IMG/VR virus record: IMGVR_UViG_3300014202_001550
Coordinates: 1 to 28,226 of that record
Length of the DNA: 28,226 bases
DNA from: a virus
Taxonomy: Duplodnaviria > Caudoviricetes
Strand: one strand, 5' to 3'
The notes beneath the pieces are model-generated. The model saw only the letters and a list, made by a program, of their open reading frames with translations, was not told where the DNA came from and did not search any database. Both the position numbers and the translations under genes were made by a program. This document shows positions 1,003 through 21,584 of this stretch, piece by piece; within the stretch, counting starts at the first letter, position 1, and every line of letters starts with the position of its first letter.

Positions 1003-1878
1003 ATGCTTAAATCAATTACCTTAAAAGGTATATATAATGATTCTCTTGTATCTGAGGCATGGTTAAAATCTTTAAAGATAAAGATTGAAGACACCAGACT
1101 ACCTACTCTTGTAAAATATGCCAAGCATTTTTCAGAAGACTATCCCCAATATTTAGATAAAAAAATTCCAGTATTTACCGATTATGTTGAATCATTCTTA
1201 GCAATTGATGAAGTTTGCACATTAAATTTAGTTAGGACCTATCTTAATCCAGAGTCCGATAATGTTAAGAAAAAAATAATTAAATATGTAATGGGTAAGT
1301 TTAACCCTCCTGCAGGAGTGGATGATACAGCATTAAATTATTTATATGAGTTAGAAACGGCGGCTTATCTGTTATACCGAGGTTATAATGTATCAGATGA
1401 ATTAAACGACGTGAATTATAAGATAAATAAATATAAGATAAATATTCAGTGTAAGAGACTGCAATCTTGTAAAAAAATAAATACAGGTTTTAAAGAGGCA
1501 TTATTTCAACTGAAAAACCAAAACAAGATTACTAGCGATAAAAATTCATATGGTTTTGTAGCTATGTCATTAGAAAGAATATTCAAACTCAATACAGATA
1601 TTAGGAAAGTTAAGGATATGAAAGAACTGGATAATGATATGATAGATTTAAAAAATCAAATGTCTAAGATAGTAGCTCCGTTATGGAATAAATCACTGAA
1701 TGAGATTAAAAAGGAACTAAAATTGCTAGGTATGATGTATCTTTATAAAAGACCTGTATATAATGTAACCAATAAAAAATTTACCTATTTCAGAAGGTTT
1801 TTATATGACGTTCCGTATCACCCTAAAAACACACCTTACTCAGAGATATTAAACTATATAGATAGCAAACCAGAATAA
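1003..1878 (+). CDS. Putative PD-(D/E)xK restriction-endonuclease-fold protein (accessory gene)
   Basis: YELETAAYLLYRGYNV...ND...INIQCKRLQS matches the ExxxAxxL..G..V / PD / (E)xK layout. Confidence 0.5.
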   Translation: MLKSITLKGIYNDSLVSEAWLKSLKIKIEDTRLPTLVKYAKHFSEDYPQYLDKKIPVFTDYVESFLAIDEVCTLNLVRTYLNPESDNVKKKIIKYVMGKFNPPAGVDDTALNYLYELETAAYLLYRGYNVSDELNDVNYKINKYKINIQCKRLQSCKKINTGFKEALFQLKNQNKITSDKNSYGFVAMSLERIFKLNTDIRKVKDMKELDNDMIDLKNQMSKIVAPLWNKSLNEIKKELKLLGMMYLYKRPVYNVTNKKFTYFRRFLYDVPYHPKNTPYSEILNYIDSKPE

Positions 1879-2634: not shown

Positions 2635-2686
2635 ATATATTATATTATTATAGGAGTCATCTTTTAAAAAGGTTAAACAAAACCAT

Positions 2687-2718
2687 AAGAAAACCCAACA
2701 CTTTATATGTATTGGGCT
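2687..2718 (-). terminator. Intrinsic terminator after the terminase-like gene
   Basis: Minus strand AGCCCAATAC-ATATAAA-GTGTTGGGTT-TTCTT: 10-bp stem with G-U pairs followed by a U-rich tail. Confidence 0.7.
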
Positions 2719-2751
2719 CTATTAACTTATATTACGATATATTAATTTATA

Positions 2752-3381
2752 TTAATACCAATCTTTACACATTATGGTAGAATTATATAATTCAGATGTT
2801 ATATGTTGTTCTAATTCTTCTAATGCTTGTTGATTTATTTTAGGATTATCAACAGGGTATAGATTAAATTTTTTCCATCCATTACTACCACACCATAAAC
2901 CTTTCAAATATCCTGGTGTTTTTAGATTAGGTAACGGATGAAATGTCATTAATATCTTAGCATCATTCAACATTGCATTAGGCAATAGTACTTCATTCCA
3001 TATATCTTCTTTCAAATATTCTGCATTATCTATACATACTAAATCTACATTTCTGCCTAATAATCTAGTTGAATTATGAGTATCTATATATATGATTACA
3101 CCGTTTATATTAATCTTAAATTCAATTTTATTTATATACTTTATATGTATTCTTCGTTCAATACATTCATCTATTATTTTATTAAATATATCCTTTACTA
3201 CTGCTTTATGAGTGGTTGTGATTAATATTGTTTGTATATGTGGAAATAATGATGTCTCTTTTAAAGCTGTTTCTATTATTACAGTAGTTAGTCCTGACCT
3301 TCTACCACCTACTACTAATTTATATTTACTTCCATCTTCAACTATTTTTTGTTGTTCTGGATAGTCTCTTAAATTAACCAT
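2752..3381 (-). CDS. Stand-alone terminase large-subunit ATPase-like domain, predicted catalytically inactive
   Basis: Colinear with the TerL N-terminal half: PEQ/PLQ, YKLVVGGRRSGLT/YKVIVAGRRFGKS, LLGRNVDLVCIDNA/LVGRGLDWVGVDEF, TFHP/GSTP, WKKF..DNPKI/WKSW..DNPTI. No nuclease domain. Confidence 0.85.
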   Translation of the reverse strand: MVNLRDYPEQQKIVEDGSKYKLVVGGRRSGLTTVIIETALKETSLFPHIQTILITTTHKAVVKDIFNKIIDECIERRIHIKYINKIEFKININGVIIYIDTHNSTRLLGRNVDLVCIDNAEYLKEDIWNEVLLPNAMLNDAKILMTFHPLPNLKTPGYLKGLWCGSNGWKKFNLYPVDNPKINQQALEELEQHITSELYNSTIMCKDWY

Positions 3382-3442
3382 TTAGGTTTCTCCCATTGGG
3401 ATTAAAAAAGAAGAAACCTATTTGTGCCGCTTATTATATATA

Positions 3443-3976
3443 TTATTCAAACTTTATACAATTAGAAAACTTTACTGCATAACCACCAATTACTCTTGCC
3501 TGGTCTATTCCATTGATTATTTTTCGTGCTGCAACATAGTTTGTAGTGGTATCTGAAAAATAATCGCCTAATTTCTTACCTGTAAATCCACCTGTTAACA
3601 TTCCATGTTCTAATATTTTCCATGCTGTTTCAGGATCCTTGGCTAGGTCTGGATTGCCTACCAAATCTATTCCTAATTCTTTACTGTATTTCTGATAGTT
3701 CCATTTCCAAGTCAATTGTACGAATCCGCGACCTATATAGGGATAGTATTTCTTACTCTTTAAATACTTTTCACTACCATACTCAGTTACTGGTTGATAT
3801 GTCCACGCTGTTTCGTGGGCACATGTAGCCAGTATATAACTATATTCATTTACTCTATTGAGTAGTTTTGAATCATCTAATTTTTGTAATAAGAAGTTTA
3901 AACCATCTACCTGAGATTGTTTGAGTTTTCCGAATTGTTCTTTATACTTTTCATAAAATATTTTTCTGTTTATCAT
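3443..3976 (-). CDS. Endolysin, glycoside hydrolase family 19
   Basis: LATCAHET...EYG...YIGRGFVQLTWKWNY...ARKIING are GH19 phage lysin motifs. Confidence 0.92.
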   Translation of the reverse strand: MINRKIFYEKYKEQFGKLKQSQVDGLNFLLQKLDDSKLLNRVNEYSYILATCAHETAWTYQPVTEYGSEKYLKSKKYYPYIGRGFVQLTWKWNYQKYSKELGIDLVGNPDLAKDPETAWKILEHGMLTGGFTGKKLGDYFSDTTTNYVAARKIINGIDQARVIGGYAVKFSNCIKFE

Positions 3977-4018
3977 TCATAGGGTAATTGTAAATATTAA
4001 AGAAACCTTTATTACTTA

Positions 4019-5227
4019 TTATTCTACTGCAGGACCTTGTGTAAGGTCTATACCACCATCTATTCTTACATCACCATCAGGTAAAGGATCCCTATTGAAA
4101 TATTCTCTATGTTCATTAATGGTTATAGTTTTGTATTTTGCTTCCTGGTCAAGTGCTTTTAATTCAAATTCTCTATCTCTTGGTTCTTGAACTTTGAATG
4201 TTAATCTTAATTTAGGATTATATGCTTTTTTAATTACTCTAGTAAATGCTCTTGCTAATTTTGTTGTTATAGGATGTATTACATTGTTATCGAATACAGA
4301 ATTTGCTGCTTCTAAGTTTGCTTTATTATAATCAGATACTAATCCTAATGAAGATTTTGGAACACCGTATGCTGAAATTATTTTATCTTTTATAAATTCA
4401 CTTGCTGCAATATAATCTAGATCCTTAGGGTTATTCTGTAATCTTTCTACCTTAGTTCCATTTTGCAACACTAATATATTATCCCCATCAGCTCCAGTAT
4501 ATAAAGCATTTAAATCCCTTCTTATTGCTGGAATATCATCTTCATTTATTCTACTTTCATTAGTTAAGGCAAATTTGAATGTAGCATCTTTGGAGAAATG
4601 TTTTCTTTGAAATTCATTGATGGCATTTTCAATTTCTATGTTAGTATATGTATATTCTATTATTCCTTTTCCATATACAGATTGTGAGATTTGATTATTC
4701 TTTATATGCTCTATTTCATCTACTCTATATTTTTGAGACTTACCAGTGCCATTACTAACTTCATATCCTGTAATCCTACCTGCACTATCTTGAATTATGG
4801 TAGTTCTTTCTGAAGGTAAAAGATAAAATGAATGAATTGTCCCAAAATTTGTATATACGAAATAAAGATAAACATCTCCTATATTTAAATAGTAATAAAC
4901 TGCTCGTTCAATTATATCATCCCAACATTCATCTAACTCATTTACTTTATCTAATAAATTTAGAAAATCATGTTCATCTAATTCCTTTTTTATTTCTGTT
5001 TGATTTTTCATTAAACAGATCACAGGCTGATGTTTTTCAACATTGATTGCTATTACACGGGAACAAGAATAAACCCATCCTTTAAATTCATTTATTAACA
5101 GTGTAGGAGTTAATTTTGCATATGCACTTTGTCCACCATATCCCCATGTAGGAACAGCAATAATATTATTTGTTACACCTGCTGTAGTTTTCGGTTTTAC
5201 GAAAAAGTCTTTTATTTTATCAAACAT
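4019..5227 (-). CDS. Portal protein, HK97 family
   Basis: WVYSC..IA, GDVYLY, EIEHIK..VYGKG, KDLDY..I.SAYGVP..LG, NLE..FD..IHP, TINEHR...PLPDGD. Confidence 0.95.
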   Translation of the reverse strand: MFDKIKDFFVKPKTTAGVTNNIIAVPTWGYGGQSAYAKLTPTLLINEFKGWVYSCSRVIAINVEKHQPVICLMKNQTEIKKELDEHDFLNLLDKVNELDECWDDIIERAVYYYLNIGDVYLYFVYTNFGTIHSFYLLPSERTTIIQDSAGRITGYEVSNGTGKSQKYRVDEIEHIKNNQISQSVYGKGIIEYTYTNIEIENAINEFQRKHFSKDATFKFALTNESRINEDDIPAIRRDLNALYTGADGDNILVLQNGTKVERLQNNPKDLDYIAASEFIKDKIISAYGVPKSSLGLVSDYNKANLEAANSVFDNNVIHPITTKLARAFTRVIKKAYNPKLRLTFKVQEPRDREFELKALDQEAKYKTITINEHREYFNRDPLPDGDVRIDGGIDLTQGPAVE

Positions 5228-5262
5228 TTATTTCAACTGTATATAGAAAAGCAATAATCATT

Positions 5263-6615
5263 TTATATTACCATTATCATTGGTCCATTGTATTTTTCCT
5301 GTAAAACGATATATCCAAGCGCATCCGAAGTATGTACAAATCCTGCATCTTCCATACTTTTATCAATTGCATCACCTTTTCGTGTAACCATTTCCAAATC
5401 TCTAGTAAGCATATAGCAATCTTTATTGTTTATATAAATACCAACTTCATCTGCTGCATTCATTAACATTCTATTAACTGCCGTTACTCTTACTCTTTGG
5501 TCACCATTGGATTTAGGAACAATTTTATATGACCTAGGGAATATTTCACGAATAATTTCATAATCACCACCAAGTTTTGAATCTGTTGTGTCCCTTGCTT
5601 TACCTGTAGCATCACCATATATTCTTATAGGTCTATCTTCCCAGTTTATTTCTTCTAAATATGTTTTGAGTAATTTACATTGACCTTTAGTACTCATATC
5701 TGGAGAGCTGAATACTCTTAAAACATTTATTACTCTTTTCTGTTCTGGTAATCCTACTATACCTTTTCTAACTTGGCATATTAAAGTGGTCATCGGATCC
5801 ACGTTAAAATCCCATACTAAACATATCGGTAAATCATAATCTAATTCTAATTTCTTTACATGAATATTTCTATTAAATTCAGTGTAAACTGCTCCCTGAG
5901 TTTTTTCGAAAGAAGCATATACTTCTTGTCGAAATGTTTTTGCATCTTCTGTTTTAGATTTACTTGCTACCTGTGATTCAATATCCTTTATTGTAGGATT
6001 ATCTAAACTTGAAAATGTCCATGACTTCCATTCAGGATCATAATCTTCATTGTTGGGGTCATTAACACCTCTTTGATATAATTCATAGAGGGCATCAAAA
6101 CCATTTGGAGTACTACCAAATACTGCTTTTCCGTTCCTATCCATGAGAGCATAAGACAATTCTCTGTGCCATTTATTCGGGTCTATGTATCTAAATTCAT
6201 CTACTCCAACCCAATCTAAACCTCTACCAACTAAATCAATATCGGCTGATTTTAGATATATTTCTGATTGATTATGTAAAAGTTTTATATGTAAATTTGT
6301 TTCATTCTTATAAACTTCCCATTGTAAAAATTCAATTCTTTTCTTTAGTTTGTCCCAAAACACTTCTTTAACAAGTCCGCGAGAGGGTCCTACAATCCAG
6401 TTTAATGAATATGGTTTTGAATATGCTGCCTTTAAGCATTCTTCCAGAATAAAAATACTTTTCCCAAATCTTCGTCCCGCAACAATTACTTTATATCGTG
6501 CTGGATCCATATACACTTCTTTTTGAAGTGGATGATTATCAACTACAGCATCATATTCCCACCAATTTTTAATAGGGTTTGTTAATGAAGCTTGTAATGA
6601 ACTTTGTTGAATCAA
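5263..6615 (-). CDS. terL: Terminase large subunit (TTG start)
   Basis: Walker A GRRFGKS, Walker B VGVDEF, coupling motif STP; nuclease acidic residues in WDFN, YGDATG and HTSDALGY. Confidence 0.95.
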   Translation of the reverse strand: MIQQSSLQASLTNPIKNWWEYDAVVDNHPLQKEVYMDPARYKVIVAGRRFGKSIFILEECLKAAYSKPYSLNWIVGPSRGLVKEVFWDKLKKRIEFLQWEVYKNETNLHIKLLHNQSEIYLKSADIDLVGRGLDWVGVDEFRYIDPNKWHRELSYALMDRNGKAVFGSTPNGFDALYELYQRGVNDPNNEDYDPEWKSWTFSSLDNPTIKDIESQVASKSKTEDAKTFRQEVYASFEKTQGAVYTEFNRNIHVKKLELDYDLPICLVWDFNVDPMTTLICQVRKGIVGLPEQKRVINVLRVFSSPDMSTKGQCKLLKTYLEEINWEDRPIRIYGDATGKARDTTDSKLGGDYEIIREIFPRSYKIVPKSNGDQRVRVTAVNRMLMNAADEVGIYINNKDCYMLTRDLEMVTRKGDAIDKSMEDAGFVHTSDALGYIVLQEKYNGPMIMVI

Positions 6616-6658
6616 ATCGAAGTAGGGAATAAAGCAGAAGAAAACATTAAGGTTTATT

Positions 6659-6672
6659 CCGCCCCGGGGCGG
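6659..6672. promoter_or_regulatory. Perfect GC-only palindrome CCGCCCCGGGGCGG between terS and terL
   Basis: Read directly; part of a 16-nt pure G/C run in an AT-rich genome. Function unknown. Confidence 0.5.
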
Positions 6673-6682
6673 GCATCAAAAC

Positions 6683-7240
6683 CTATTTAATTACCTTTAT
6701 ATCTTGCTGTGGTACGGGAGACCTGTTATTCATATTTATATTTACATTATGGCCTATTTCACTTAATTTAACCTGTGGTAAGAATAACCTAACAAGTTCT
6801 AATTTTATTTTTTCATCTTTGCTGTTGAATAATTCCTGAGCTGTATCAGTTGCAATATCTCTCAGCCTTGTCATTACAACTTTAGATTGTGCATTCTTTA
6901 AAGCTTCATGGCACAGTTTAAAGTTTTTATCGTTAGAATTTTTCCAACACCACCATTTACTAATTTTTAATATTTCAGCAATCTTAGTAAGACTAAAATT
7001 TGTAGCTAACTTATACATTAATATTTTATACTGTAATTCTTTCAAATCAAACTTTTTTATTATAGCATAATATTCGTTTATATTCAAAAGATTATCATCT
7101 AATGCCAAATCTGCTAAATCCTTTTCAAACTGTTCAATTTGAATTTCATTTTTTTTATCATTTATGTAGGCTAATTCTTCCTGTAAAACCTGTTCATCTG
7201 TCTTATCCTTTAGTAGTATATTAACTATTTCTTCATTCAT
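6683..7240 (-). CDS. Probable terminase small subunit (HTH)
   Basis: Directly upstream of terL; HTH-like SLTKIAEILKISKWWCWK followed by helical segments and a beta-like tail (NVNINMN). Confidence 0.65.
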   Translation of the reverse strand: MNEEIVNILLKDKTDEQVLQEELAYINDKKNEIQIEQFEKDLADLALDDNLLNINEYYAIIKKFDLKELQYKILMYKLATNFSLTKIAEILKISKWWCWKNSNDKNFKLCHEALKNAQSKVVMTRLRDIATDTAQELFNSKDEKIKLELVRLFLPQVKLSEIGHNVNINMNNRSPVPQQDIKVIK

Positions 7241-7479
7241 TATTTATTCTCTTTATTTTCTATTTGTAATTCCGCGAACTTTTGACCTACTTTGCTTCCT
7301 ACACCAAACCCAAGTAAAGCTATAATAAGGTAAGTAAGTTCTGTTATTAATTTACCTACAAATACCATATAACCACCTAGAAATGACAATAAAATACCTG
7401 TAACTACTAATAAGAAAGTAGTTAATCTTGTCATTGAAAAGTTTCCGTTATCTTCTTTGAAAAAGCTCTTGATAGACAT
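7240..7479 (-). CDS. Putative holin (2 transmembrane segments)
   Basis: 79 aa; FFKEDNGNFSMTRL start, two hydrophobic helices, charged C-terminus. Confidence 0.6.
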   Translation of the reverse strand: MSIKSFFKEDNGNFSMTRLTTFLLVVTGILLSFLGGYMVFVGKLITELTYLIIALLGFGVGSKVGQKFAELQIENKENK

Positions 7480-7740
7480 ATTTATATTTAGTTATATAAT
7501 GTTCCATAAACTTTGCATTTTCCCATTGTATTACTTGTATCCAGCAATATATCCATAGGGTCATATCATTTAGTTTGCTTAATAATTTGCTAATCATTCT
7601 TAATTTTCCTTTTGGGTTTCATACCACGTGAAGCAAGAATTATCTTTTCTTTATGTTCAACCGACTCAGTATGATTCTTTTCTTTAGCTGTTATAGGTAT
7701 ATTACATAAAATCTGTATAAAGTTTTTTAATATATTCTCT

Positions 7741-7932
7741 TTATCTTCTTGTTTCATTTTTAATCAATCTTTTAACTTTTGAAATAACTTTTTTCTTTCT
7801 AAAATTAAGTGGTAATCTATTCTTCTTTCTAACTATCTTTATACATTCACCTTCATTGAGATATATCTCAAGCATATGCCTATCACGTTCACTTTCCCAA
7901 ATCTCATCAAATTCCTTTTTTCTTAACTTCAT
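7741..7932 (-). CDS. Small basic hypothetical protein (63 aa)
   Basis: ORF track; same strand as the late operon. Confidence 0.5.
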   Translation of the reverse strand: MKLRKKEFDEIWESERDRHMLEIYLNEGECIKIVRKKNRLPLNFRKKKVISKVKRLIKNETRR

Positions 7933-8041
7933 CTTGTAATTCCTTTTTTATTAATCGAATTTCATCAAGTAATAAATTAAATTTTATATTGAAACCCTTT
8001 AATCTCTTATATAGGTAAATATTAAATTGTTCTTTATCCAT
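7907..8041 (-). CDS. Small hypothetical protein (44 aa, MDKEQFNIYLYKRLKG...)
   Basis: Translated by hand; follows TATATTTATA and overlaps the next ORF. Confidence 0.45.
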   Translation of the reverse strand: MDKEQFNIYLYKRLKGFNIKFNLLLDEIRLIKKELQDEVKKKGI

Positions 8042-8081
8042 GTTAATATAAATATAATCTCAGTATGAGTAGAATGGAAAA

Positions 8082-8327
8082 CTATTTTGAACTATTATTC
8101 CCTTTCATTTCAGCTATTGCTTCTTTTATTTCTGTAAGAATTTCCATTACTTTAGATTCATTTACAGCTATTCTATCAATAACGTTTGCGAATCTATCTA
8201 AATAATTATATTTTATCTCATTAGATTGTTTTTCAACATTTACTAGTCTGGTATAAAGAGTTTTTCCAAACCATGCAACTATTGTCACTACTATACCTGC
8301 AATCCATAATGCTACTGTTGTGTCCAT
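8082..8327 (-). CDS. Membrane-anchored coiled-coil protein, holin-like
   Basis: N-terminal TM (VALWIAGIVVTIVAWFG) plus coiled coil; typical position after fibre genes. Confidence 0.55.
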   Translation of the reverse strand: MDTTVALWIAGIVVTIVAWFGKTLYTRLVNVEKQSNEIKYNYLDRFANVIDRIAVNESKVMEILTEIKEAIAEMKGNNSSK

Positions 8328-8361
8328 TGTTTCTCGAATGTAAATTGTAGAAGTAATCTCA

Positions 8362-8946
8362 TTAAGAACCTGTTGAATTTATGATTGAAAAATGAATAGA
8401 AAAGTTATCTGCAAAACTACTACCTAATGGGTCATCTACATATATACCATATGTAAACTTACCTGTTTCAACAGTAGTTAGACCTCGTTTCAAAGTAATA
8501 CCACTAGAAGCATAATCATGATTGCATAAAAATGTTACGTTTATTACAGAAGAAGCCGAAGAAACTTTTGAAGCCGAAACAGTAATCAAAAAGTTGGTAG
8601 TATCTGCTAGACCACTATTTGATACATTTACCCTTCCAGCCTGTGCTGTTCCAAAGTTTGATGTTACACTTGTAACTAAAAACGAACTTGCTTCAACTAC
8701 TGCAGTTGGAACGTATACTGAACTTGCAGACAAACTAGTTACATTTGCATTTGTTACAGTTATGTTTGTCAATATACTAGTAGTTGAAGTCAAACCATTT
8801 TGATCTAGATTCAACACTGCACTTTGACCTGCTTTCTGGAATGTAAACGCATTTGTAAGCGCGAAATTTGTCGCTGTACCACTTCCAACATGTACAATTG
8901 ATGCAGTAAAAGAACTAACTGTTGTATCACTAAATTGTGTTGCCAT
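8362..8946 (-). CDS. Ser/Thr-rich virion (fibre-associated) protein
   Basis: Beta-rich, S/T-rich, directly after the fibre gene. Confidence 0.55.
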   Translation of the reverse strand: MATQFSDTTVSSFTASIVHVGSGTATNFALTNAFTFQKAGQSAVLNLDQNGLTSTTSILTNITVTNANVTSLSASSVYVPTAVVEASSFLVTSVTSNFGTAQAGRVNVSNSGLADTTNFLITVSASKVSSASSVINVTFLCNHDYASSGITLKRGLTTVETGKFTYGIYVDDPLGSSFADNFSIHFSIINSTGS

Positions 8947-8971
8947 TATAATTTCCTATATTTAAAAATTC

Positions 8972-10621
8972 TTAACTGTAAGTAGCGCCGATAAGATAAT
9001 CTGGACTTCTAACAACATCACTTGATTGCCAAGCCACTGACTTATTAAAGAAGCAACCTTTTGTTTTATTGTTTCCTGAGCTAAGAATAGCACTTGCATA
9101 AAACTCACATCCTTTCATGATAGACCTTTCCAAATCAATGTTATCGGCTGTAATAAATACACATTCAACAGCTTCAAATCTTTCAACAGCATGATCAAAA
9201 CCACCATTAGTGAAAATTAAATTTTGAATTTTGCTTGTTACCTGTGTTTCAGAAGACGCAGGACGCGTCAATTGACCAAATATATTTATCATACCCTGCC
9301 CAATAATATTCATCCAATCTGGAATTTCAACATTTTCATAATATCCCGAAATATCTGGATGCTGTCTAACAATGATTGACCATATATTTGCAGAAGTCGT
9401 AACTCCATTTTCAGTAATACCTGCGACCGCTCCTGAAAGAGATTTATATGTTTTTAATTCGACATCTTCAGTTGCACTACTATCTACATACACAGTTTTA
9501 CTTTGATAAGAACTATTTATTGATTGAAAATTATCACTAATCCATTTTACATGAGCATAATCATCATTTACCAGACTACCTGTAATATACTTTGATGAAC
9601 TTGTTGGTATCTTTAAGTCTGATAATTTCCATGTATTTTGACCAGTCACTGTTGATTGCCCAAAATCTACCTGTCCTGTTTCTTCACCACCATAGACTTT
9701 TATTATATCAGTTGGTAAACCTGTAAAAGTGATGTCACCTCTTACTCTTAGAACAGGGTTTCCTGAAGTAACTGCACTGGGTTTATATATACTTGTATGA
9801 CCTAAATATGCGGTTATTGAACTAATTGATTCTGCAGTAAGTGATTTTAATTGCATTTCAGAAAGAGATGCATTTATCCTTGGAACATTGTTGGCTTGAT
9901 AACCAACGTCCAGAGCCACTATTCCACCATTAGGAGGATTACTAGCTGTTTCAATTCTAAAAGCACCAGCTGTAGTACCCGAAGTACCTAAATTAAAATT
10001 AGTACCACCTTGAAATGTCTTTTTGTTTGTAATAGTTTGGTTAGTGCCCAAAGTTACATATTCAGCAGATAACCCACTTGTAATTGAAGATAATGCAATT
10101 GTGATAGATGACAAGGAAGCTGAAATAGTATCTATTACCCAACCTGCTGCAGGTATTCTAAATCTATAATACCCGTCCACTGGAGGATTAAACGGATTAA
10201 ATCCGTTTACACCACTTAAACTTATGTCATAAGTAAACCAACCCAAAGCAGTATCACCTAGTTTATCCATTCTAACATATAAATCTTGCGTTGAAATTGC
10301 AGAACAGGATCCGTTAAAAGCAGAATATCTCGAATACTTTCTTTGAATCACATCATTTATTTTGGGTAATATACCCACAACACTTTGCGACCATTGTCCT
10401 GTGCCTAGGTCCAATGCAACATTGGGTATTTGAAAATCTCCGACTTCGTACATACCCTGACCTCTATCAGTAAAATGTCCATATGCTACTTCGGTTGATT
10501 CATTATCAACTCTTACAAATTTTATGTTTGCTTGAGTTAATCCTGTTACGAATACAGGTCCACCATCGGCTCCTGTAGTTGATACTGGTAAAATGAAAGA
10601 ATTATTTCCTGTTAATGCCAT
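8972..10621 (-). CDS. Tail fibre/spike, putative receptor-binding protein with C-terminal beta-helix-like region
   Basis: Fibre motif YVTLGTNQTITNKKTF; TVYVD..YKSLSGAV..IIV..GYYENVEI..NIIGQG resembles the start of a pectin-lyase-like helix. Confidence 0.65.
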   Translation of the reverse strand: MALTGNNSFILPVSTTGADGGPVFVTGLTQANIKFVRVDNESTEVAYGHFTDRGQGMYEVGDFQIPNVALDLGTGQWSQSVVGILPKINDVIQRKYSRYSAFNGSCSAISTQDLYVRMDKLGDTALGWFTYDISLSGVNGFNPFNPPVDGYYRFRIPAAGWVIDTISASLSSITIALSSITSGLSAEYVTLGTNQTITNKKTFQGGTNFNLGTSGTTAGAFRIETASNPPNGGIVALDVGYQANNVPRINASLSEMQLKSLTAESISSITAYLGHTSIYKPSAVTSGNPVLRVRGDITFTGLPTDIIKVYGGEETGQVDFGQSTVTGQNTWKLSDLKIPTSSSKYITGSLVNDDYAHVKWISDNFQSINSSYQSKTVYVDSSATEDVELKTYKSLSGAVAGITENGVTTSANIWSIIVRQHPDISGYYENVEIPDWMNIIGQGMINIFGQLTRPASSETQVTSKIQNLIFTNGGFDHAVERFEAVECVFITADNIDLERSIMKGCEFYASAILSSGNNKTKGCFFNKSVAWQSSDVVRSPDYLIGATYS

Positions 10622-10625
10622 TTTA

Positions 10626-11129
10626 TTATGTTATTAATCCTGGGAAAAAACTATTGTATTGAATATCATCTGGATCAATCCAGTTTAAATCTGCTACTTT
10701 TCTCTTTGTTGTAAATTGAATCACTACACCTTTATTTCCTGGAGCATTTAAACCGCCTTTATGTATTCCGAACTGAAAATTTCCTGTATAATTTACTTCA
10801 AAATATCTATCCTGTGCATCAATTCGAGGTGTAAATAATATAGGGTATCTATCTTTTCTATATTTTAAAACCTTTTCCAAAGCTTTCATTGTATCTTTGT
10901 GAATGTGTTGGTCATAATATAGAGTCCAATTTATTCTATATCCTCTTACATATTCTTCAATACAATCATCAAACAATAAATAATGAGAAGCTTTTAATTC
11001 ATCTGTATCTTCAATTAATCCACTTTCATTTGTTAGAGGAAAAGGTATATGTTCAACTATTTCATTTGTAATCGGATGTAATGCTGTGAATTTAGGTTTA
11101 TCCGAACCATTTATATAATCTATTGCCAT
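10626..11129 (-). CDS. Putative tail-tip protein
   Basis: Position after tape measure, TAATG coupling, beta-rich (RGYRINWTLYY). Confidence 0.5.
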   Translation of the reverse strand: MAIDYINGSDKPKFTALHPITNEIVEHIPFPLTNESGLIEDTDELKASHYLLFDDCIEEYVRGYRINWTLYYDQHIHKDTMKALEKVLKYRKDRYPILFTPRIDAQDRYFEVNYTGNFQFGIHKGGLNAPGNKGVVIQFTTKRKVADLNWIDPDDIQYNSFFPGLIT

Positions 11130-12841
11130 TACTCACTTGTTTTAACTAAACTCATCTTAGTAGTTTCTTTTATAAAATCTAATTCAATACTCTTTACAGT
11201 AAAGAAACTATTATCGAAAAAATCCATTCCTGAACCTGTGAAATTATATTTTGAGTGAATATTTGGGTATAATCCTTTAATGTTTACATCAACTGTTTGA
11301 CCATTAGAAGCATTTACAAATGGAAGATAATTATTTCTAAATGTTTCACTTTGAGTATATGAATTGTAGTCCAATCCTATTGTGGCATTATTACCACCAA
11401 ATTTGAAAAGCATTGAACCGCAATTACCATTGAAAATTATGTCTCGGTCACTTTCTCCCATGCTTGTAGCAGGATAGTTTCTTCCGCTATTTGTATTCAC
11501 GACTGTTTTCATAGTAGTGTGTTCACCACCATCTAAGTAAATTATCTTCTTTGATTTGATGAATTTTCTATGAGTATCTCTATTGTTATTCCAGTTAGGA
11601 TTACCATTATATTCTATTTCTGCCCAATCAAATGCTTCCTGTGCTCTTGCATTTTCTATTGCATACCTTGTTGAAAACGAAGTATAAGGATATAGTATAT
11701 AACCATTAGGACTCCCTCCGATCCTTTCAAAAAAATGAGATTGATTTATTACTGGGGAATGCTTAAGTGTAACCATTTTAAAACAATTACCTTGAGTATG
11801 ATAATAACCATTTGATGTAATGTTACCATCTGGAATTATCAAATATTCAAAATCACTTGTATTAAGTTTATATCCTATTTCCCAATCATCTTCTACATTA
11901 CCAAATGGAATGCTTGTAGTGGTATTCTCAGCTTCAGACCTATTGATTATATTCAAGTATAATTCGTATAAATTTGTATATGGTCTTTGCGTGATAAACC
12001 AAGTCCAACCCATTGCGTAACAAACACATTCGAGAAAATCGAAAACAGAAAATCCCTGCTGCCAAAATCTCTTATAACCACTTCTAAGAAACCAATTATT
12101 AGTAACACCAGATTGATAAAACATTTGAGGAATATTGTTTACATACCAATCATTCCATGCTTGGTTACCTGGTCCAGGTCCGATAACTTGGGTATTGATA
12201 TTCATCGGGAATAGTACACTAAAAAATGTTTTAGCTGTACATAATGTATTTTCTGCTGTTCCATTTGAATCTTCTGAACGAGGGTCACCTGCCCATGGTA
12301 ATACTGTTACTTCTACCAAACCGTTATTTCCAAACCCCTGTGTTGAATGATAGGGACTTGTTAAATCTTTACCTGAAAAATATTGTTTAAACTCTTTCAT
12401 CATGTCCAGAATTTGAACTGTAATTATTTCAGTTTGTCCAGTGTTGTTGAAAATTTCTTTAATGTTGTCTGGATTAATATATCCAGACATATAGTTTGTA
12501 CCATTATATTTTAAATCAATATAAAATCTTCTAAATTGTAGAATATTTGTCCTGTCAAATAATCCGAAATAATTCATTAAAAATTTATTATTCTTTAATC
12601 CTGAAAGTTTTAGAGAAATATTATTTACATCGTAATACACTGTATTAAATCCATCTTGTAAGGAACTACCAGTTTTCTGTTTTATCAAATTACCAATATC
12701 GGTTGCATATTGAGCTAAATTGATTCTTTCGCCAATTTGTATTTTGGATATTCCACTATTCATTATTGAACGTTCGGAATATGTTGATACATGGTCAAAT
12801 TCATAACAGGTACATAATATTTCTATATCATTTATTGCCAT
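11129..12841 (-). CDS. Putative tail-tip/hub protein
   Basis: 570 aa immediately downstream of tape measure; SVFDFLECVCYAMGW resembles hub-protein segments. Confidence 0.55.
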   Translation of the reverse strand: MAINDIEILCTCYEFDHVSTYSERSIMNSGISKIQIGERINLAQYATDIGNLIKQKTGSSLQDGFNTVYYDVNNISLKLSGLKNNKFLMNYFGLFDRTNILQFRRFYIDLKYNGTNYMSGYINPDNIKEIFNNTGQTEIITVQILDMMKEFKQYFSGKDLTSPYHSTQGFGNNGLVEVTVLPWAGDPRSEDSNGTAENTLCTAKTFFSVLFPMNINTQVIGPGPGNQAWNDWYVNNIPQMFYQSGVTNNWFLRSGYKRFWQQGFSVFDFLECVCYAMGWTWFITQRPYTNLYELYLNIINRSEAENTTTSIPFGNVEDDWEIGYKLNTSDFEYLIIPDGNITSNGYYHTQGNCFKMVTLKHSPVINQSHFFERIGGSPNGYILYPYTSFSTRYAIENARAQEAFDWAEIEYNGNPNWNNNRDTHRKFIKSKKIIYLDGGEHTTMKTVVNTNSGRNYPATSMGESDRDIIFNGNCGSMLFKFGGNNATIGLDYNSYTQSETFRNNYLPFVNASNGQTVDVNIKGLYPNIHSKYNFTGSGMDFFDNSFFTVKSIELDFIKETTKMSLVKTSE

Positions 12842-15800
12842 TTATAATTTGATTGAATTTTTATATTCCTGATAAGCAGGATCTGCTTCAATCATAAATT
12901 CTACTAATTTTGTATTTGCTTTTATATAAATATCTGGAGCTTTAATTTGAGGTCTTGTATTATTATATAATCCACCCATATTAAATGCTGTTTGATTATA
13001 CTTAGTAGCTGTATTTCCATTTATTGCATGTAATAAAGGTAAATTTTGAGAAGTAGCATGAGCATTTACAACAAACTCACCATTACTTAACCAAGCAGGT
13101 ATACTATCTGATAACCAACTTCCTGGTCCTGAAACATATCCTCCTTCTGCGAATGGAATAGCTTTTGATGCAATAGAACCCACACCACCAAAAAATCCGA
13201 ATATACTACTGATTGATTCTAATGTTTTTATTAATGCTACTATTGATTGAACTATACTAAATGCCTGTTGTAATTTTACTACTAAAGAATTGTCGCTAAA
13301 TGCAACACCAAGCAAATTTGCTATTTGATTTACAACACCAAATGCCTGTGTTAATGAACTAGTAACTGCATCATATAATTCATCTTGAATTTTTTGTGCT
13401 AATTGTTTTAATTGTATATCAAATCTAATTTGTTCTGCTTTCTCAAGTCTTTCCTTATCTCTTTCTGATATATCTGTTCTTCTTTTTATATTTCTAATTG
13501 CTTCAGAATGATTAAACTTCATTAATTCCAATTCTCTATTATAAACATTCTCAATACTTTCCAGATTTGCTTTTTCCAAATCATGGATTGTGTCCATTTC
13601 ATTCTTATTTCTTTGCTTTTCTTTTTCTTCTTCTTGTTTTCTTAGTTGTTGTTTAATTCCATATTGTTTAAATACTTCATCACTAACTTTATTTTCTAAT
13701 TTAGCAGTATCTAATACTAAATCTGTGATTCTTTTATTGACTTCTTCAGTTGCTTCTTTTGTCTTTAATGTTTTGGATATAATTTCATATTCATCTTGTT
13801 CTTTCTCATTCCTGTCTAAAAACAATTTATCTACTTCTAATACAGATAGATGTTCTTTCTCTTTTCTAATTTCAATTTGCTTAGTTATTTCTTCATACTT
13901 TTTCTTTATTTCATCAAGTTTCTTTATTTCTTCTTTTGCTGCTTCACTTTTATTATTTTTATCACTGCCTGGTTTAAAATCTCCACTAAAATCATTACCC
14001 TTTTTATTATTTAATCTATCACTTTCAGCTTTTATTCTAGCAATAATATCGTTTGCTCTTTGTTCCATTGCTTTAGCAACTTCAACTGGAGTATTAGGAT
14101 CCTGTGCAACTTTTATCAAAACACTTGCTTGGTTTAATAAACCCATTATTTCAGCACTTTGAGCTAGAGCTTGATTAAGATTCAATATATTTGCAATTGT
14201 GTTTCCAGTTAAATTTGCAAATGCTTGCTCTAATAATTTTGCTGCTTGTATATTATTTCCTATTTCAGCTTTTGTTTGTTGAAATACCTGTACTAAATTT
14301 CCATTCTTTATACCTTCAGCTAATACTTCCTGAAACCTTAATTTCAATTCTCTTAATGCTCTTTCACTATCATTGACCTCTTTTCTCAATTCTCCCATTC
14401 TATCGGTAGCATCAATTATTCGAGGTATACCAAATGCATCTGTTTCTTGACCTGTGGTAACTAATTCTTCTAATGCTTTTTTATTATCTTCTATGGTTTC
14501 TAAATAATCTATATTGGCATCAATTAAGTCTCCAATTTGTTCTACTTGTTTATCAATTTGTACTTGTTGTTGTAGTTTTAATCTTTCTTCTTCCTGTTCA
14601 ACTATTGCTTTTAAAGTTTCTAAGTTTATTTGTTCTGCTTCATCTTTATCATTTACACCACTTACAACTTCAGGATATAATCCCTTTACCTTTTCTAATG
14701 TCTTGTTATAATTTTCTTGTTCTGTTTTTGATAATACATTAGCAGATACAGCCCCAGCAATTACGGTTTTTAAATCATTAATATTTTGCTTTGTTGTTTC
14801 AATTTCAGAACCTAATTTCTTAATTTCTTCACCAGATCCTTCAAATGATTCATTAAAAGACTCTATACTTGGTGTTGCACTATTTAATATTGCTACTAAT
14901 GCTGCGGAGGCTACTACAATAGCTCCAATTGCAATTAGTATTCCACCTGTTGATATGTTTAATGCCGTAAAAGCCACTATTACTGCTCCTATTGCGGGTA
15001 ATATCTGAAGTGCTGCCGAACCGATTCCCCCAATTAAAACTATTAATCTTGAAGCACTTTCAGTTCCTAAACCTAAACTTTCAGATAATTTTATAAATGT
15101 ACCTGCTAAATCCTGACCTAATTTTGCTTTTGCATTTTCTAATTCTACTGTAATATTCTTTAAAGTATCTGCTTGGTCATTTTGTTTACTATTTATATCA
15201 TCAAGGGAAGAACCATAAACTTTTAAAGTAGCTTGCAATCTTAATCTTTGAGCTGATTCATCTGTTAAATTCTGGATTTGTTTTTCGGTTAATCCAGAAG
15301 TTATTCTCATTGTTTCATTAACTTTTTCTAAATCGAAATTCAAAGTTAATGCACTTCTTCTTTGTCCTGTTAAGATAAATTTTTCTAATGCCTGTGTAGT
15401 AGATTCTATTGATCCACCGAACAAATCTGTTCTTCTCTCAGCTAAATCCATAAACCTTGCTGTTTCTTCAGATGAAAATCCCAGTGAACGAGTAGCATTT
15501 GATAACTTTATAATTTCTGCATCTGTTAAATTTCCTGAAGTAGCTTTTTTTAACAATTCTAATTGTACATTTGCCTTTCCAACACCACCCTCTATTTCAT
15601 TAAATCCTTCTTTAAGTACACTTAATTCTGCTCCTGCTGAAACAACATCAAACATTTCCTTTCCAAAATCTATTAAACCTTTTATTGCTGTTTGAACTGC
15701 AAAGGCTAATACAGAAATATTTTCACCCATTTCAAGGAGTGCCTGACCGCTCATTTTTGTTTCAGCACTTAAACCTTTTTGTTCTCTAACTAATCCCTTT

Positions 15801-15985
15801 ATTGTATCAGATAATTCACCCGCTCTCTTTTGAAATGATTTATATGCATCACTCCCTCTTTGTCCTGATTCCACAAGTTGATCCATACCCCTTTTTAATT
15901 GTTGCTGTTCCTCACGCAAAGATGCTAGACCTCTATTATCTAGGGAAGTAGTTATCTTAATTTTTAAATCATCAATTAATGCCAA
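12842..15985 (-). CDS. Tail tape measure protein (TTG start)
   Basis: 1047 aa helical/coiled-coil protein with hydrophobic segments and C-terminal FAEGGYVSGPG..SDSIPAWLSNGEFVVNA motif. Confidence 0.93.
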   Translation of the reverse strand: MALIDDLKIKITTSLDNRGLASLREEQQQLKRGMDQLVESGQRGSDAYKSFQKRAGELSDTIKGLVREQKGLSAETKMSGQALLEMGENISVLAFAVQTAIKGLIDFGKEMFDVVSAGAELSVLKEGFNEIEGGVGKANVQLELLKKATSGNLTDAEIIKLSNATRSLGFSSEETARFMDLAERRTDLFGGSIESTTQALEKFILTGQRRSALTLNFDLEKVNETMRITSGLTEKQIQNLTDESAQRLRLQATLKVYGSSLDDINSKQNDQADTLKNITVELENAKAKLGQDLAGTFIKLSESLGLGTESASRLIVLIGGIGSAALQILPAIGAVIVAFTALNISTGGILIAIGAIVVASAALVAILNSATPSIESFNESFEGSGEEIKKLGSEIETTKQNINDLKTVIAGAVSANVLSKTEQENYNKTLEKVKGLYPEVVSGVNDKDEAEQINLETLKAIVEQEEERLKLQQQVQIDKQVEQIGDLIDANIDYLETIEDNKKALEELVTTGQETDAFGIPRIIDATDRMGELRKEVNDSERALRELKLRFQEVLAEGIKNGNLVQVFQQTKAEIGNNIQAAKLLEQAFANLTGNTIANILNLNQALAQSAEIMGLLNQASVLIKVAQDPNTPVEVAKAMEQRANDIIARIKAESDRLNNKKGNDFSGDFKPGSDKNNKSEAAKEEIKKLDEIKKKYEEITKQIEIRKEKEHLSVLEVDKLFLDRNEKEQDEYEIISKTLKTKEATEEVNKRITDLVLDTAKLENKVSDEVFKQYGIKQQLRKQEEEKEKQRNKNEMDTIHDLEKANLESIENVYNRELELMKFNHSEAIRNIKRRTDISERDKERLEKAEQIRFDIQLKQLAQKIQDELYDAVTSSLTQAFGVVNQIANLLGVAFSDNSLVVKLQQAFSIVQSIVALIKTLESISSIFGFFGGVGSIASKAIPFAEGGYVSGPGSWLSDSIPAWLSNGEFVVNAHATSQNLPLLHAINGNTATKYNQTAFNMGGLYNNTRPQIKAPDIYIKANTKLVEFMIEADPAYQEYKNSIKL

Positions 15986-16008
15986 TTATTTTTAACTCAA
16001 GGGAATAT

Positions 16009-16035
16009 TGCCTATGCCGGCTACGGCATTAGGCA
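16009..16035 (-). promoter_or_regulatory. Strong stem-loop just upstream of the tape measure start
   Basis: TGCCTATGCCG-GCTA-CGGCATTAGGCA (11 bp, one bulge); no clear U-tract. Confidence 0.55.
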
Positions 16036-16046
16036 TAAGATAAAAC

Positions 16047-16478
16047 CTATTTTAATTCTACTTTACTCTTTTCTAACCATCTTTCAATATCTTGTTTCAA
16101 TCTTATTTCATTATATCCAAATACATGTCTTGGTGGTAAATGTGTTGATGGATCACCTTTTTGTAATCTTTTCATTACATCATTATTTCTACCTTGCTCT
16201 ACATACACTTCATATTCATTAACCCCATTTGCTTTCATTCTAATACTATTTAATAATCGTCCTGTTCTACCCTGAAACACCCTACTATGACCTTTTTCTC
16301 TAATAGTTCTCAGTGCATTTGGAGCTATTTTTGTACCATCAAAACTTCTTGCTGTTTGAAGATTTTTGTCAATATCTTCTTTAATTAACTGTGCGATATT
16401 TTTTAATGGTATATCAACTGATAGGGTAGCTGATGTTAATTTATCTAAATTTTGAAACTCAATTTTTATATTAAACAT
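16047..16478 (-). CDS. Tail-completion / virion morphogenesis protein (HK97 gp10 / P2 gpS-like)
   Basis: DGTKIAPN..TI..KG..RTGRLLNSI...LQKG...LPPRHVFG. Confidence 0.7.
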   Translation of the reverse strand: MFNIKIEFQNLDKLTSATLSVDIPLKNIAQLIKEDIDKNLQTARSFDGTKIAPNALRTIREKGHSRVFQGRTGRLLNSIRMKANGVNEYEVYVEQGRNNDVMKRLQKGDPSTHLPPRHVFGYNEIRLKQDIERWLEKSKVELK

Positions 16479-16704
16479 AAAATGAATATCCTAATTTATA
16501 ACCCTGAGAATAAGAAAATGAATCATTTGATATATAGAATACTGCCTTATATGGAATTATATTATGTATTCCATCTTCTGTTTGTCTACTAACACTTACT
16601 TTTGAATAAAGAACTAAACTGGGTTTCTCTACAATCACATAATCAGATTTATTCTTAAATCTTGTATCTAAATATTTTCTTAATTGTTCGATCCTTTTAT
16701 TCAT
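16471..16704 (-). CDS. Hypothetical protein (77 aa)
   Basis: Overlaps both neighbours (ATGA coupling with the upstream ORF). Confidence 0.6.
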   Translation of the reverse strand: MNKRIEQLRKYLDTRFKNKSDYVIVEKPSLVLYSKVSVSRQTEDGIHNIIPYKAVFYISNDSFSYSQGYKLGYSFYV

Positions 16705-17048
16705 GCTCTCATTCTTTGGTTTGCTTCTTTTTCACAATAATTTTTATACTTTTCATAACTCATATATTCAAAAAAGTCTGGATAATTTAAATTTTCAGTA
16801 ACCCATTTCTTTTTTGATATATCACCATTAAATAATAAATGTATCATATAACCTATTGCCACCTCATTTTCATCTAAATCATATTCATCTACTGTATCAT
16901 TATCCTTATTATGAACTATATACTTATTAGGTAATTTAATATCATCTAATTTTGGATCATCAGAATGTTGGTATTTAGCAAATGCATAAATCCACGCATC
17001 ACATTCGTTTAATATTTCTTGGAGCGAACTAAAAAAAAATAGAAACAT
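16701..17048 (-). CDS. Tail assembly chaperone, frameshifted C-terminal part (gpT-like)
   Basis: Overlaps the upstream ORF in the -1 frame across a T9 run. Confidence 0.7.
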   Translation of the reverse strand: MFLFFFSSLQEILNECDAWIYAFAKYQHSDDPKLDDIKLPNKYIVHNKDNDTVDEYDLDENEVAIGYMIHLLFNGDISKKKWVTENLNYPDFFEYMSYEKYKNYCEKEANQRMRA

Positions 17049-17515
17049 CTCTTTAGAAAATTAGAATATTCGCCATATTCCTGAAAATCCATTTTATTAA
17101 CAATTTCATTCGAGTGATTTATATCACAATTTTCGAATAGAATATCCGTTAACAATTGAGCATTTTCTTCCTCTAATAGAAGTGTTTCTATTGCTAAATC
17201 CTGAAAATTAGATAAGTTTTCTCCAGAAGGTATAAATTCAGGTTTCTCTAAAACCACTTTTTCCATGGCTTTTAAAAATGTTTCTGATTGAGTCTTAACA
17301 TCTTCTGGAGTTACATTTTTTTCCTTGAAATATTCTTTAAGAAAATCCTTATTTGTAATAAGCAATTTATTCAACTCATTCTTTGCTTCATAAGTGAAAT
17401 TGCTCAATACATTTACATATCTTTTATTTAACTGTAATGCTTTTTGCATGTACGGTCTAAAAGATTTAGTTCTTAAAGTATATGATTTGTCTTTGTAAAA
17501 TAAAAGATTTTCCAT
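17009..17515 (-). CDS. Tail assembly chaperone (gpG-like)
   Basis: Directly downstream of the major tail gene; ends just after the slippery site. Confidence 0.7.
   Translation of the reverse strand: MENLLFYKDKSYTLRTKSFRPYMQKALQLNKRYVNVLSNFTYEAKNELNKLLITNKDFLKEYFKEKNVTPEDVKTQSETFLKAMEKVVLEKPEFIPSGENLSNFQDLAIETLLLEEENAQLLTDILFENCDINHSNEIVNKMDFQEYGEYSNFLKRCFYFFLVRSKKY
17030..17039 (-). other. Programmed -1 frameshift slippery site (T TTT TTA within a T9 run)
   Basis: G frame TAT TTT TTT TTA GTT; -1 frame CTA TTT TTT TTT AGT stays open to 16701. Confidence 0.75.
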
Positions 17516-17558
17516 CGTTAATTTATATTTTACTCGTTAAAAAAACTTACTACAAACT

Positions 17559-18119
17559 TTATGAAATAGCGGTTTCAACGACGGTATAATAATCACCTGC
17601 CGCAACTGAAACAGTAGTTCCTGAAGCAGATCCTACTGCACAATAAGCACCATAAGCACTTGCTGCAATTGATACTGCACTTTCAAGAATGGAAGATTTA
17701 TATTCGAAAGGAATAGTTCCATCTGCAAACTTTAGTTCAATTTGAGGAGTAATACTTCCAGTACCAAAAAATATCTCTTGGTATTTTCCATTTACAGTTC
17801 CATTGAATTTGTACATTTGATAAAATTTACCTCTTACTTCTTTGGCTATATTGATATTTCCAGAAGCAGATTGTAACATAGTTCCAGTAACCATTACCGA
17901 ACGATTACCCTCTACAGTTACTACTACATTTCCAGTTTCATCAATTATATCCTGAGTAGGAGTCTTATCCGATAATGTACTTTCTTTTATATATCCAAGT
18001 GAATGAGGTGTGTCAGGTGAAGACAGTTGAGTACCATTTTCGTCAACTTGAGTAACTTTAATTTCACCACCACCATAAATATTTACACTTGCTTTACTTT
18101 TGCTAGTCGTTAATGCCAT
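17559..18119 (-). CDS. Major tail (tube) protein
   Basis: 186 aa, beta-rich (LGYIKESTL, DETGNVV); lies between the terminator and chaperone genes. Confidence 0.75.
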   Translation of the reverse strand: MALTTSKSKASVNIYGGGEIKVTQVDENGTQLSSPDTPHSLGYIKESTLSDKTPTQDIIDETGNVVVTVEGNRSVMVTGTMLQSASGNINIAKEVRGKFYQMYKFNGTVNGKYQEIFFGTGSITPQIELKFADGTIPFEYKSSILESAVSIAASAYGAYCAVGSASGTTVSVAAGDYYTVVETAIS

Positions 18120-18171
18120 AATTTTTATAAGAGATTAAAAAGAGGAGAAAACTTATTTACTATTCTATATT

Positions 18172-18663
18172 CTAAACTTCTGGTCTTGAATCAAAAGAAC
18201 CATCAAATATTTCATCATATTCGATTAATATATTACAAACTATAATTCCTTTATTTACTACATCATCTGGATAAGTTTCAATATTACTAACAATTAATTT
18301 ACTTATTCCCAAATCCAGAACATACAAACCTTTATTTTCTTCATTATAAAAAAAGTTTAATACATCATCGATGAGGTTTTCACAATAATCTGAAATTATC
18401 CCTGTTTTACTCGGGTCCTTTTCAGCTGAGATTACACCAACAAACATTAAATTCAATTGGCATTTATCGGTCGTTCCAGCTTCAAAATCTGATTCTCTAC
18501 TTTCACTGTTATAAGCAAAATATACAGTAGGATATTCCTTTACATCTTCTAATGCTAAAAATTTCTTGTAAAATTTTTTTAAGGTAAAATTATATCCATT
18601 GTTGACCGTCCATAACGATAAATCTCTATATATTCTATTTCTTATCAATTGCCTTTTAGACAT
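18172..18663 (-). CDS. Tail terminator protein
   Basis: MSKRQLIRNRI..L..NGY..YP.V...LIDDV pattern; upstream of the major tail gene. Confidence 0.65.
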   Translation of the reverse strand: MSKRQLIRNRIYRDLSLWTVNNGYNFTLKKFYKKFLALEDVKEYPTVYFAYNSESRESDFEAGTTDKCQLNLMFVGVISAEKDPSKTGIISDYCENLIDDVLNFFYNEENKGLYVLDLGISKLIVSNIETYPDDVVNKGIIVCNILIEYDEIFDGSFDSRPEV

Positions 18664-18675
18664 GTTTTCCCGTTA

Positions 18676-19314: not shown

Positions 19315-19325
19315 TCTTTCGTTTT

Positions 19326-19368
19326 AAAATGAAAATGGATCCCATAAAGGGAATAAATGGGATCCATT
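19326..19368 (-). terminator. Intrinsic terminator after the major capsid gene
   Basis: Perfect 12-bp stem AATGGATCCCAT/ATGGGATCCATT followed by TTCATTTT on the minus strand. Confidence 0.75.
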
Positions 19369-19394
19369 GAATTTATATAAGGGAAAAACTAAAT

Positions 19395-20483: not shown

Positions 20484-20604
20484 GTATTTCTATAAATAAG
20501 GCTTAAATCTGAAGTAACAATTTTGTTAAGTGTGCTTATCTTCTTTTCCCTAACTACCTTAGTAATATTTCTAGAAGATTACCTGTTAGTCCCTAGTACT
20601 TTAA

Positions 20605-21366: not shown

Positions 21367-21584
21367 ATAATTCCATTCTTTTATAAGAAAGAAACCATTT
21401 TAGAAAGCGTATTACGGAAGGATTTATTAAGAGTAGTGTTTGTAAATAGTTTTGTTAGGTTAACAGCCTGAAATTACAAAAAGTCTCTTTAATAATTATT
21501 AATCCAGATTATTTTACTGGAGATTATTTTATAAATATACATACCTGTTTTGTGAATCGTCAATACCTATAATGTTTTATTATT

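Follow-up and report, generated by a model that had tools for sequence, protein, structure and literature searches.

The question raised by this locus is why a tailed phage with a complete large terminase (TerL) carries a second, stand-alone copy of the terminase ATPase domain in which the catalytic residues are replaced. The window, i.e., the whole stretch of DNA analysed, is a single virus record of 28,226 bases. An integrase lies at one end of it, and it further contains a gene of the sigma-70 family and a structural operon running leftward. The operon order is protease, capsid, tail genes, a small membrane protein, the probable small terminase (TerS), TerL, portal and endolysin. This arrangement (3443–21366, minus strand) is unusual, with protease and capsid first and terS–terL–portal–endolysin last. 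Because both window ends fall at gene ends and the same proteins are also present on a 35,009-nt contig, the window is likely a trimmed provirus. The closest relative of its integrase is 37% identical, and queries with the portal and the major capsid protein recovered no related viral contigs; the phage is an orphan, and temperate in view of its integrase. The genes relevant to the question are the following:

2752–3381, minus strand: stand-alone gene with the TerL ATPase fold and replaced catalytic residues (open reading frame, profile, fold and column analysis)
3443–3976, minus strand: GH19 endolysin, directly upstream of the 209-aa gene (profiles)
4019–5227, minus strand: portal (profiles)
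5263–6615, minus strand: resident full-length TerL with intact motifs (profiles)
6683–7240, minus strand: probable small terminase (position only, no family match)

The reading frame at 2752–3381 starts with ATG and encodes 209 amino acids. Residues 6–197 of its product align to the resident TerL (25% identity, E 4e-13), and the TerL profile phrog_2 matches it at E 9.7e-13. An AlphaFold2 model based on an 11-sequence alignment (pLDDT 83, pTM 0.84) found TerL ATPases as the top PDB matches (E 5e-10, TM 0.73–0.78), namely the ATPase domains of the P74-26, D6E, Sf6 and T4 enzymes; the viral structure library and the Atlas concur on this fold, and PADLOC gave no match to the protein. The frame spans the ATPase domain from border to border without an added domain, and its 3′ limit is the lid helix, where Thr202 takes the position of the lid Glu351 of T4 gp17. 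The gene is thus colinear with the ATPase half of TerL and ends where that half ends, as the initial annotation had described it. Compared with the TerL ATPase domains (Terminase_6N/phrog_2; P74-26 7KS4/4ZNI, D6E 5OEA, Sf6 4IFE, T4 gp17 2O0H), the fold is alike, including the ASCE core with its lid, and the Q motif, the Walker A Arg, the Walker B Asp and the lid helix are common to both. Unlike TerL, the 209-aa protein has no nuclease and carries other residues in place of the Walker A Lys, the catalytic Glu, the motif III Thr and the lid Glu; a full-length TerL lies 1.9 kb away in the same phage. Three attributes of a functional TerL are therefore missing: the Walker A Lys, the catalytic Glu and the RNase H-type nuclease, fused or encoded by a partner gene. 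Indeed, no nuclease remnant or partner gene was found in the six frames of the window, where the nuclease-half profile finds the resident TerL alone. Such terminases do exist in split form (L099:4417–6057, with adjacent ATPase and nuclease reading frames) and their ATPase-only frame is of like size, but since the only nuclease in the window is that of the resident TerL, the possibility that the 209-aa gene is one half of a split terminase was rejected.

A search of 1.84 billion representatives with the 209-aa protein gave 182 matches, and the best 150 were all 21–34% identical to it, except itself. From these best 150, 116 full-length homologues (at least 380 aa) served as the reference set for the residue analysis, in which the following positions are of importance:

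3289–3291, minus strand: position of the Walker A Lys, here Leu31 (CTA; homologue alignment)
3058–3060, minus strand: position of P74-26 Arg139, here Leu108 (alignment)
3025–3027, minus strand: position of the catalytic Glu, here Asn119 (AAT; homologue alignment)
2938–2946, minus strand: coupling motif III, here Thr-Phe-His 146–148 (homologue alignment)
2776–2778, minus strand: position of the lid Glu (T4 E351), here Thr202 (alignment)

The Walker A Lys and the catalytic Glu after Walker B are each present in 115 of the 116 full-length homologues, and 113 of these have T or S at the motif III position. The substitutions GRRSGLT, IDNA and TFHP read as initially annotated, and the lid Glu, not mentioned at that time, is likewise lost (E202T). 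Seven of the ten near-invariant columns (at least 90% conserved) are kept, the three lost ones being K31L, E119N and E202T; at least three of these columns are missing in just 2 of the 116 full-length TerLs. Arg27, Gly30, Thr32, Asp118 and Gln10 are retained, together with 41 of the 43 hydrophobic core columns, while 14 of the 36 conserved columns are altered. Leu31 (CTA) is two base changes away from a Lys codon, and Asn119 (AAT) two from a Glu codon. The earlier claim of targeted loss rather than decay is supported in so far as the three near-invariant columns lost are the catalytic ones, and it gains a second support from an equivalent K-to-aliphatic change in an independent jumbo-phage family (see below). 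According to the accessible part of PMC6379665, any of eleven changes of lambda E179, Asn included, left no phage yield, and its Table 1 gives T4 Glu351 as the lid Glu of the arginine toggle. Judging from its residues, the 209-aa protein is very likely catalytically dead; by analogy with established terminase enzymology, it probably does not hydrolyse ATP and probably binds it poorly, and the aliphatic residue may fill the empty phosphate pocket. Loss of the trans Arg finger was discarded as a mark of inactivation: an Arg is also absent from the P74-26 Arg139 position in 26 of the 116 full-length TerLs, the resident one included, and both proteins of the phage have an Arg two residues on.

The origin of the copy is less evident from the searches. 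Among 149 candidate proteins, the only close homologue of the 209-aa protein was the protein itself, which occurs on five contigs (up to 35,009 nt in length), and none was found in viral or metagenome contigs; tblastn against phage and plasmid sequences (49 and 118 records; best 20 of 118) gave ordinary TerL genes below 60% identity. The relation to the resident TerL held in part: the two proteins can be aligned, but they are no closer than foreign TerLs are, the resident enzyme ranking 131 among the best 150 matches. Free trees separate the 209-aa protein from the resident TerL, and sisterhood of the two was not rejected in the AU test (p-AU 0.296 with 44 of 148 rows and 0.055 with 15 rows). 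The branch of the 209-aa protein is long (2.09 vs. a median of 0.83). A clade of all short proteins obtained with FastTree was gone under a mixture model and was abandoned. A second ATPase reading frame near TerL was found in none of the 47 distant loci obtained via TerL (15, 5 and 27), which are partial and partly redundant, and a complete ATPase-only frame in none of the 10 loci of related endolysins.

The gene is flanked by signals of its own, as had been proposed from the first reading of the sequence:

3433–3461, minus strand: promoter-like site TTGTAT-17-TATAAT, one copy of a five-copy motif (pattern and matrix)
3383–3420, minus strand: 12-bp leader hairpin, predicted to bury the Shine–Dalgarno (SD) sequence (folding)
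3390–3394, minus strand: SD-like GGGAG, 8 nt before the ATG (sequence)
2680–2720, minus strand: intrinsic terminator-like stem (2690–2720) with a T tail (folding)

The terminator-like stem is present, with limits at 2690–2720 instead of the 2687–2718 given before. The promoter-like site overlaps the end of the endolysin gene. Within it, the previously noticed motif AATATATAT at 3436–3444 is indeed overrepresented, with 10 occurrences in the window vs. 2.5 expected (0 of 100 shuffles), and it belongs to a longer 29-nt promoter-like motif, TT[TG]-N-AATATA-TA(T/A)(T/A/G)(A/G)T. This pattern, drawn up after the sites were seen, has five sites (start of the −10: 22066+, 23035+, 23256+, 21991− and 3438−), all with an intergenic −10 and a gene directly ahead, whereby 21991− points to the structural operon. 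With a matrix made from the other four sites, the 3438 site tops the non-training positions (rank 5 of 56,394), and leave-one-out recovers each of the other four as well. The 3438 and 22066 sites have 16 identical bases in common; a repeat this long was seen in 12 of 300 random windows. The five-copy motif is a candidate consensus for the sigma factor of the phage (22285–23001) or for that of the host. There is also an 11/12 sigma-70 match in antisense orientation inside the 3′ end of the gene (2764–2791, plus strand), which, with two such matches in 19 kb elsewhere, may be due to chance.

The leader hairpin (−15.0 kcal/mol) is the strongest of 34 start regions, with a z of −2.2 and equally good folds in 6 of 200 shuffles, and it is predicted in the short and the read-through transcript models alike. 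Since the SD lies inside this 12-bp hairpin, the folding model suggests that the 209-aa gene is translated at a low level. If the promoter-like site is real, the gene would be transcribed ahead of TerL without waiting for read-through of approximately 18 kb.

A related phage carries a comparable gene. The short match P0057 was placed in a provirus, L054. Among 31 window genes used as queries, nine others match L054 as well (E < 1e-5); its tail, membrane-protein and TerL genes are collinear with the window, and PHROGs identified its terS-like gene and its portal. The tail–terS–terL–portal order is common to both. A 208-aa ATPase-only gene (L054:10001–10627) is located directly before the terS-like gene, and L054 is the only one of the 51 loci from the P0057 search with such a frame. 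This solo copy has 40% identity to the TerL of L054 and is placed as the sister of that enzyme (100/99) on a seven-fold longer branch; its Walker motifs are intact (K and DE), and the LRG Arg is lost. A common origin of the two solo genes was rejected, as a single clade had a p-AU of 0.009, so two related phages acquired such a copy separately. Both leaders (L054:9959–10000 and window 3382–3424) contain AAATAGGTTTC at a similar distance from the ATG, an 11-nt match; among 912 upstream pairs, 5 have a match of this length. Folding of the L054 leader is weak (−4.6, rank 8 of 24).

Nine further terminase-ATPase proteins of 192–227 aa were seen among the matches (P0036, P0061, P0116, P0144, P0145, P0118, P0029, P0038 and P0107), most of them stopping near the lid motif and with varied catalytic loss. 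P0107, on a 53-kb contig, is short and dead (K to Q, E to G). It and P0118 may be fragments or split halves; the genomic context of these two was searched for and not found, P0057 alone having been placed.

Nuclease-less terminase copies are already in print, in the accessible text of PMC13601566 and PMC5259590. The latter reports that a truncated large terminase, CBB_274, recurs among the Rak2-like phages and, in the part accessible, mentions the truncation and not lost catalysis. Aligning CBB_274 and four orthologues (L049:1616–2173 and L050–L053:801–1511) revealed that all five have L, I or V in place of the Walker A Lys and all five are without the catalytic Glu. Their Walker A motifs read RGAGLS, RGSGLT, RGCGLT, RECGIT and RGSGVT, three with the same Leu as the 209-aa protein. 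In a quick tree made without an AU test, with the two catalytic columns dropped, the jumbo copies cluster with their own T4-type TerLs (SH-aLRT 90) and the 209-aa protein falls outside. It has the properties of a CBB_274-type copy, i.e., a nuclease-less copy beside a full TerL, K replaced by L, I or V and E lost, but, on this tree, not common descent with that family. The grouping in the tree makes it likely that the change of the Walker A Lys to Leu in the 209-aa gene and in the CBB_274-type copies is convergent. The CBB_274-type copies, moreover, have retained an extension at the N terminus and, in most cases, the LRG Arg, and lie directly beside terL in jumbo phages, whereas the 209-aa gene has its own promoter-like site and belongs, with a separate origin, to a temperate phage of approximately 28 kb.

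Another stand-alone terminase-ATPase-like protein, of approximately 220 aa, is T4 vs.8 (PMC13601566, accessible part). Its profile match to the short-protein set has a probability of 90%, but it keeps the Walker A K and the Walker B DE, unlike the 209-aa protein. The vs.8 family is phrog_1488, to which the 209-aa protein had no match at E 0.01, and it does not count as a member. TerI of Listeria prophages (bioRxiv 10.1101/2025.02.27.640495) is also a temperate-phage gene with its own promoter, and blocks packaging at the terminase; it is a small protein with two immunity proteins, for which the accessible part of the preprint does not describe a terminase-like fold, in contrast to the 209-aa protein. 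The literature covered, with most subscription journals outside it, holds no account of such copies as catalytically dead or decoy-tested, and no terminase decoy appears in the accessible parts of PMC13581612 and PMC11564622. Genes of this kind had been recorded before, though without an explanation.

As to function, bacteria recognise the terminase ATPase through no fewer than four families of sensors, which raises the question of how a phage can evade a sensor directed at residues that it is not free to alter. According to the accessible part of PMC13601566, Avs1–3 and Upx sense TerL, the part sensed by Avs2 and Upx is its ATPase domain, and EcAvs2 closes the interface with a bridging ATP that is linked to the ATP of the terminase; citing earlier work, the same source states that SeAvs3 recognises active-site residues together with the bound ATP. 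We tentatively consider it possible that the binding partner of the 209-aa protein is an immune sensor. The protein would then be a binding-only mimic occupying host terminase sensors of the Avs1–3 type, and a sensor bound by it, lacking the terminase ATP that helps activate, would be activated incompletely. A transcript from the 3433–3461 site would make the mimic available before TerL, which lies approximately 15 kb down the structural operon. The retained ATPase domain favours the mimic, as the sensed shape is kept while the ATP-contact residues are gone, and so does the recurrence of such copies (all five jumbo copies and the L054 copy): a pressure common to all tailed phages would lead to repeated independent origins. 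A broader version, doubtful as it stands, would have unrelated phages repeatedly convert ATPase duplicates (P-loop Lys to Leu, Ile or Val, Glu lost) into antagonists of terminase-sensing NLR-like immunity, i.e., convergent pseudo-PAMP decoys, with the L054 copy as an early and the 209-aa gene as a late stage.

Several observations weaken the mimic reading. In the accessible part of PMC13601566, isolated ATPase domains strongly activate EcAvs2 (five of five) and all Upx homologues, most Walker B Asp mutants retain activation of Upx, and T4 vs.8 shows toxicity together with EcAvs2; its authors do not settle on a role for vs.8-like proteins and name anti-defence among the possibilities. For a protein that binds a sensor and fails to activate it, the literature covered, some of it accessible in part, offers no demonstrated case. 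Moreover, K and DE persist in the L054 copy, something not expected of a non-activating design, and an SD-burying hairpin with low output is a poor fit for a stoichiometric sponge. Consequently, of the three roles offered by the initial annotation (decoy, dominant-negative subunit, packaging regulator), the decoy meets contrary data from EcAvs2 and Upx activation in the accessible text, and all three are putative.

Whichever the partner, the gene is, with good confidence, a maintained non-catalytic binding protein. Its codon use, open frame, terminator and a promoter-like site common to four other phage sites read as those of a maintained gene: GC at the codon positions is 0.38/0.29/0.12, and the codon-adaptation score, partly reflecting AT richness, is the highest among 26 genes. 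Purifying selection is inferred from such features, as the searches gave no homologues. The same absence, together with the 14 changed columns and the predicted occlusion of the SD, would suit a duplicate that is decaying or silent and serves no function at present. This appears improbable because, as first claimed, the frame is intact despite heavy divergence, open from domain start to domain end, and codons are used as in a coding gene. When neutral substitution was simulated, 11 of 1000 runs retained an open frame at 80% identity and 0 of 1000 did so at 60, 40 and 30%; the simulation began from a stand-in sequence, the true parent being unknown, and bounds only recent decay from an unsampled parent. 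As the whole phage is an orphan, missing homologues say little on decay. That the protein is an active ATPase with a deviant Walker A is less probable still. The kept Arg27, Gly30, Thr32, Asp118 and Gln10 would be in line with it, and in lambda TerL the usual Walker A position is not occupied by a lysine (PMC6379665, Table 1, accessible part). However, the lambda-type arrangement was rejected, as the replacement Lys of lambda stands three residues before the Arg, where the 209-aa protein has Val24; this protein has also lost the catalytic Glu, the motif III Thr and the lid Glu.

The main rival to the mimic is packaging interference, somewhat unlikely in our estimate, in which the domain binds the TerS of an invader or joins its TerL ring and stalls it, while the hairpin limits the dose and spares the phage's own motor. 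The promoter-like site and terminator belonging to the gene, its place on a temperate, integrase-bearing element, the separation from the resident TerL in free trees, the dose-limiting hairpin and the prophage-encoded inhibitor TerI as a precedent agree with this, but the same promoter motif faces lytic operons and does not indicate expression in the lysogen, the TerI precedent lacks a described terminase-like fold in the accessible text, and with TerL matches of 21–34% identity (best 150 of 182) a target lineage is not identifiable. Rather unlikely is a regulator of the own motor, which would hold TerS or TerL inactive until proheads are ready. Copies do occur in the packaging operons of three lineages, by terL in the CBB-like phages, ahead of the terS-like gene in L054, and behind portal and endolysin in the window, and sisterhood with the resident TerL was not rejected (p-AU 0.296 and 0.055); tandem duplication, however, likewise leaves adjacency, identity to the own TerL is just 25%, and a second ATPase frame in 0 of 47 TerL loci and 1 of 51 others, these loci being partial and in part redundant, does not speak for a general motor part. 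A scaffold exapted for binding some unrelated protein or nucleic acid, or for lysis timing, to which the kept core on a long branch and the adjoining endolysin could point, is unlikely too, given frame limits at the ATPase domain borders with no extra domain and the absence of a complete ATPase-only frame from the 10 related endolysin loci.

A natural domain with the sensed shape minus the ATP-contact residues is a ready reagent for Avs1–3 and Upx, and the mimic reading would give a function to the vs.8- and CBB_274-like genes; if motor poisoning were true instead, it would be a new route of phage–phage exclusion. Having no close homologue, the 209-aa gene is a weak evolutionary model, and the cultured CBB-like phages are the practical system.

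Elsewhere in the window, a 291-aa accessory gene (1003–1878, plus strand) with a PD-(D/E)xK-like pattern has an Atlas match to an unnamed bacterial family (0.96, TM 0.81) and a weak PADLOC match to PDC-M07A (E 0.0017); it is a candidate defence nuclease. Two stretches of approximately 600 nt are non-coding, the leader of the structural operon (21367–21990) and the gap after the late operon (1879–2469), and Rfam gave no matches, these stretches included. The early region encodes a SAM-dependent methyltransferase (23795–24445, plus strand; Pfam Methyltransf_12, E 3e-13).
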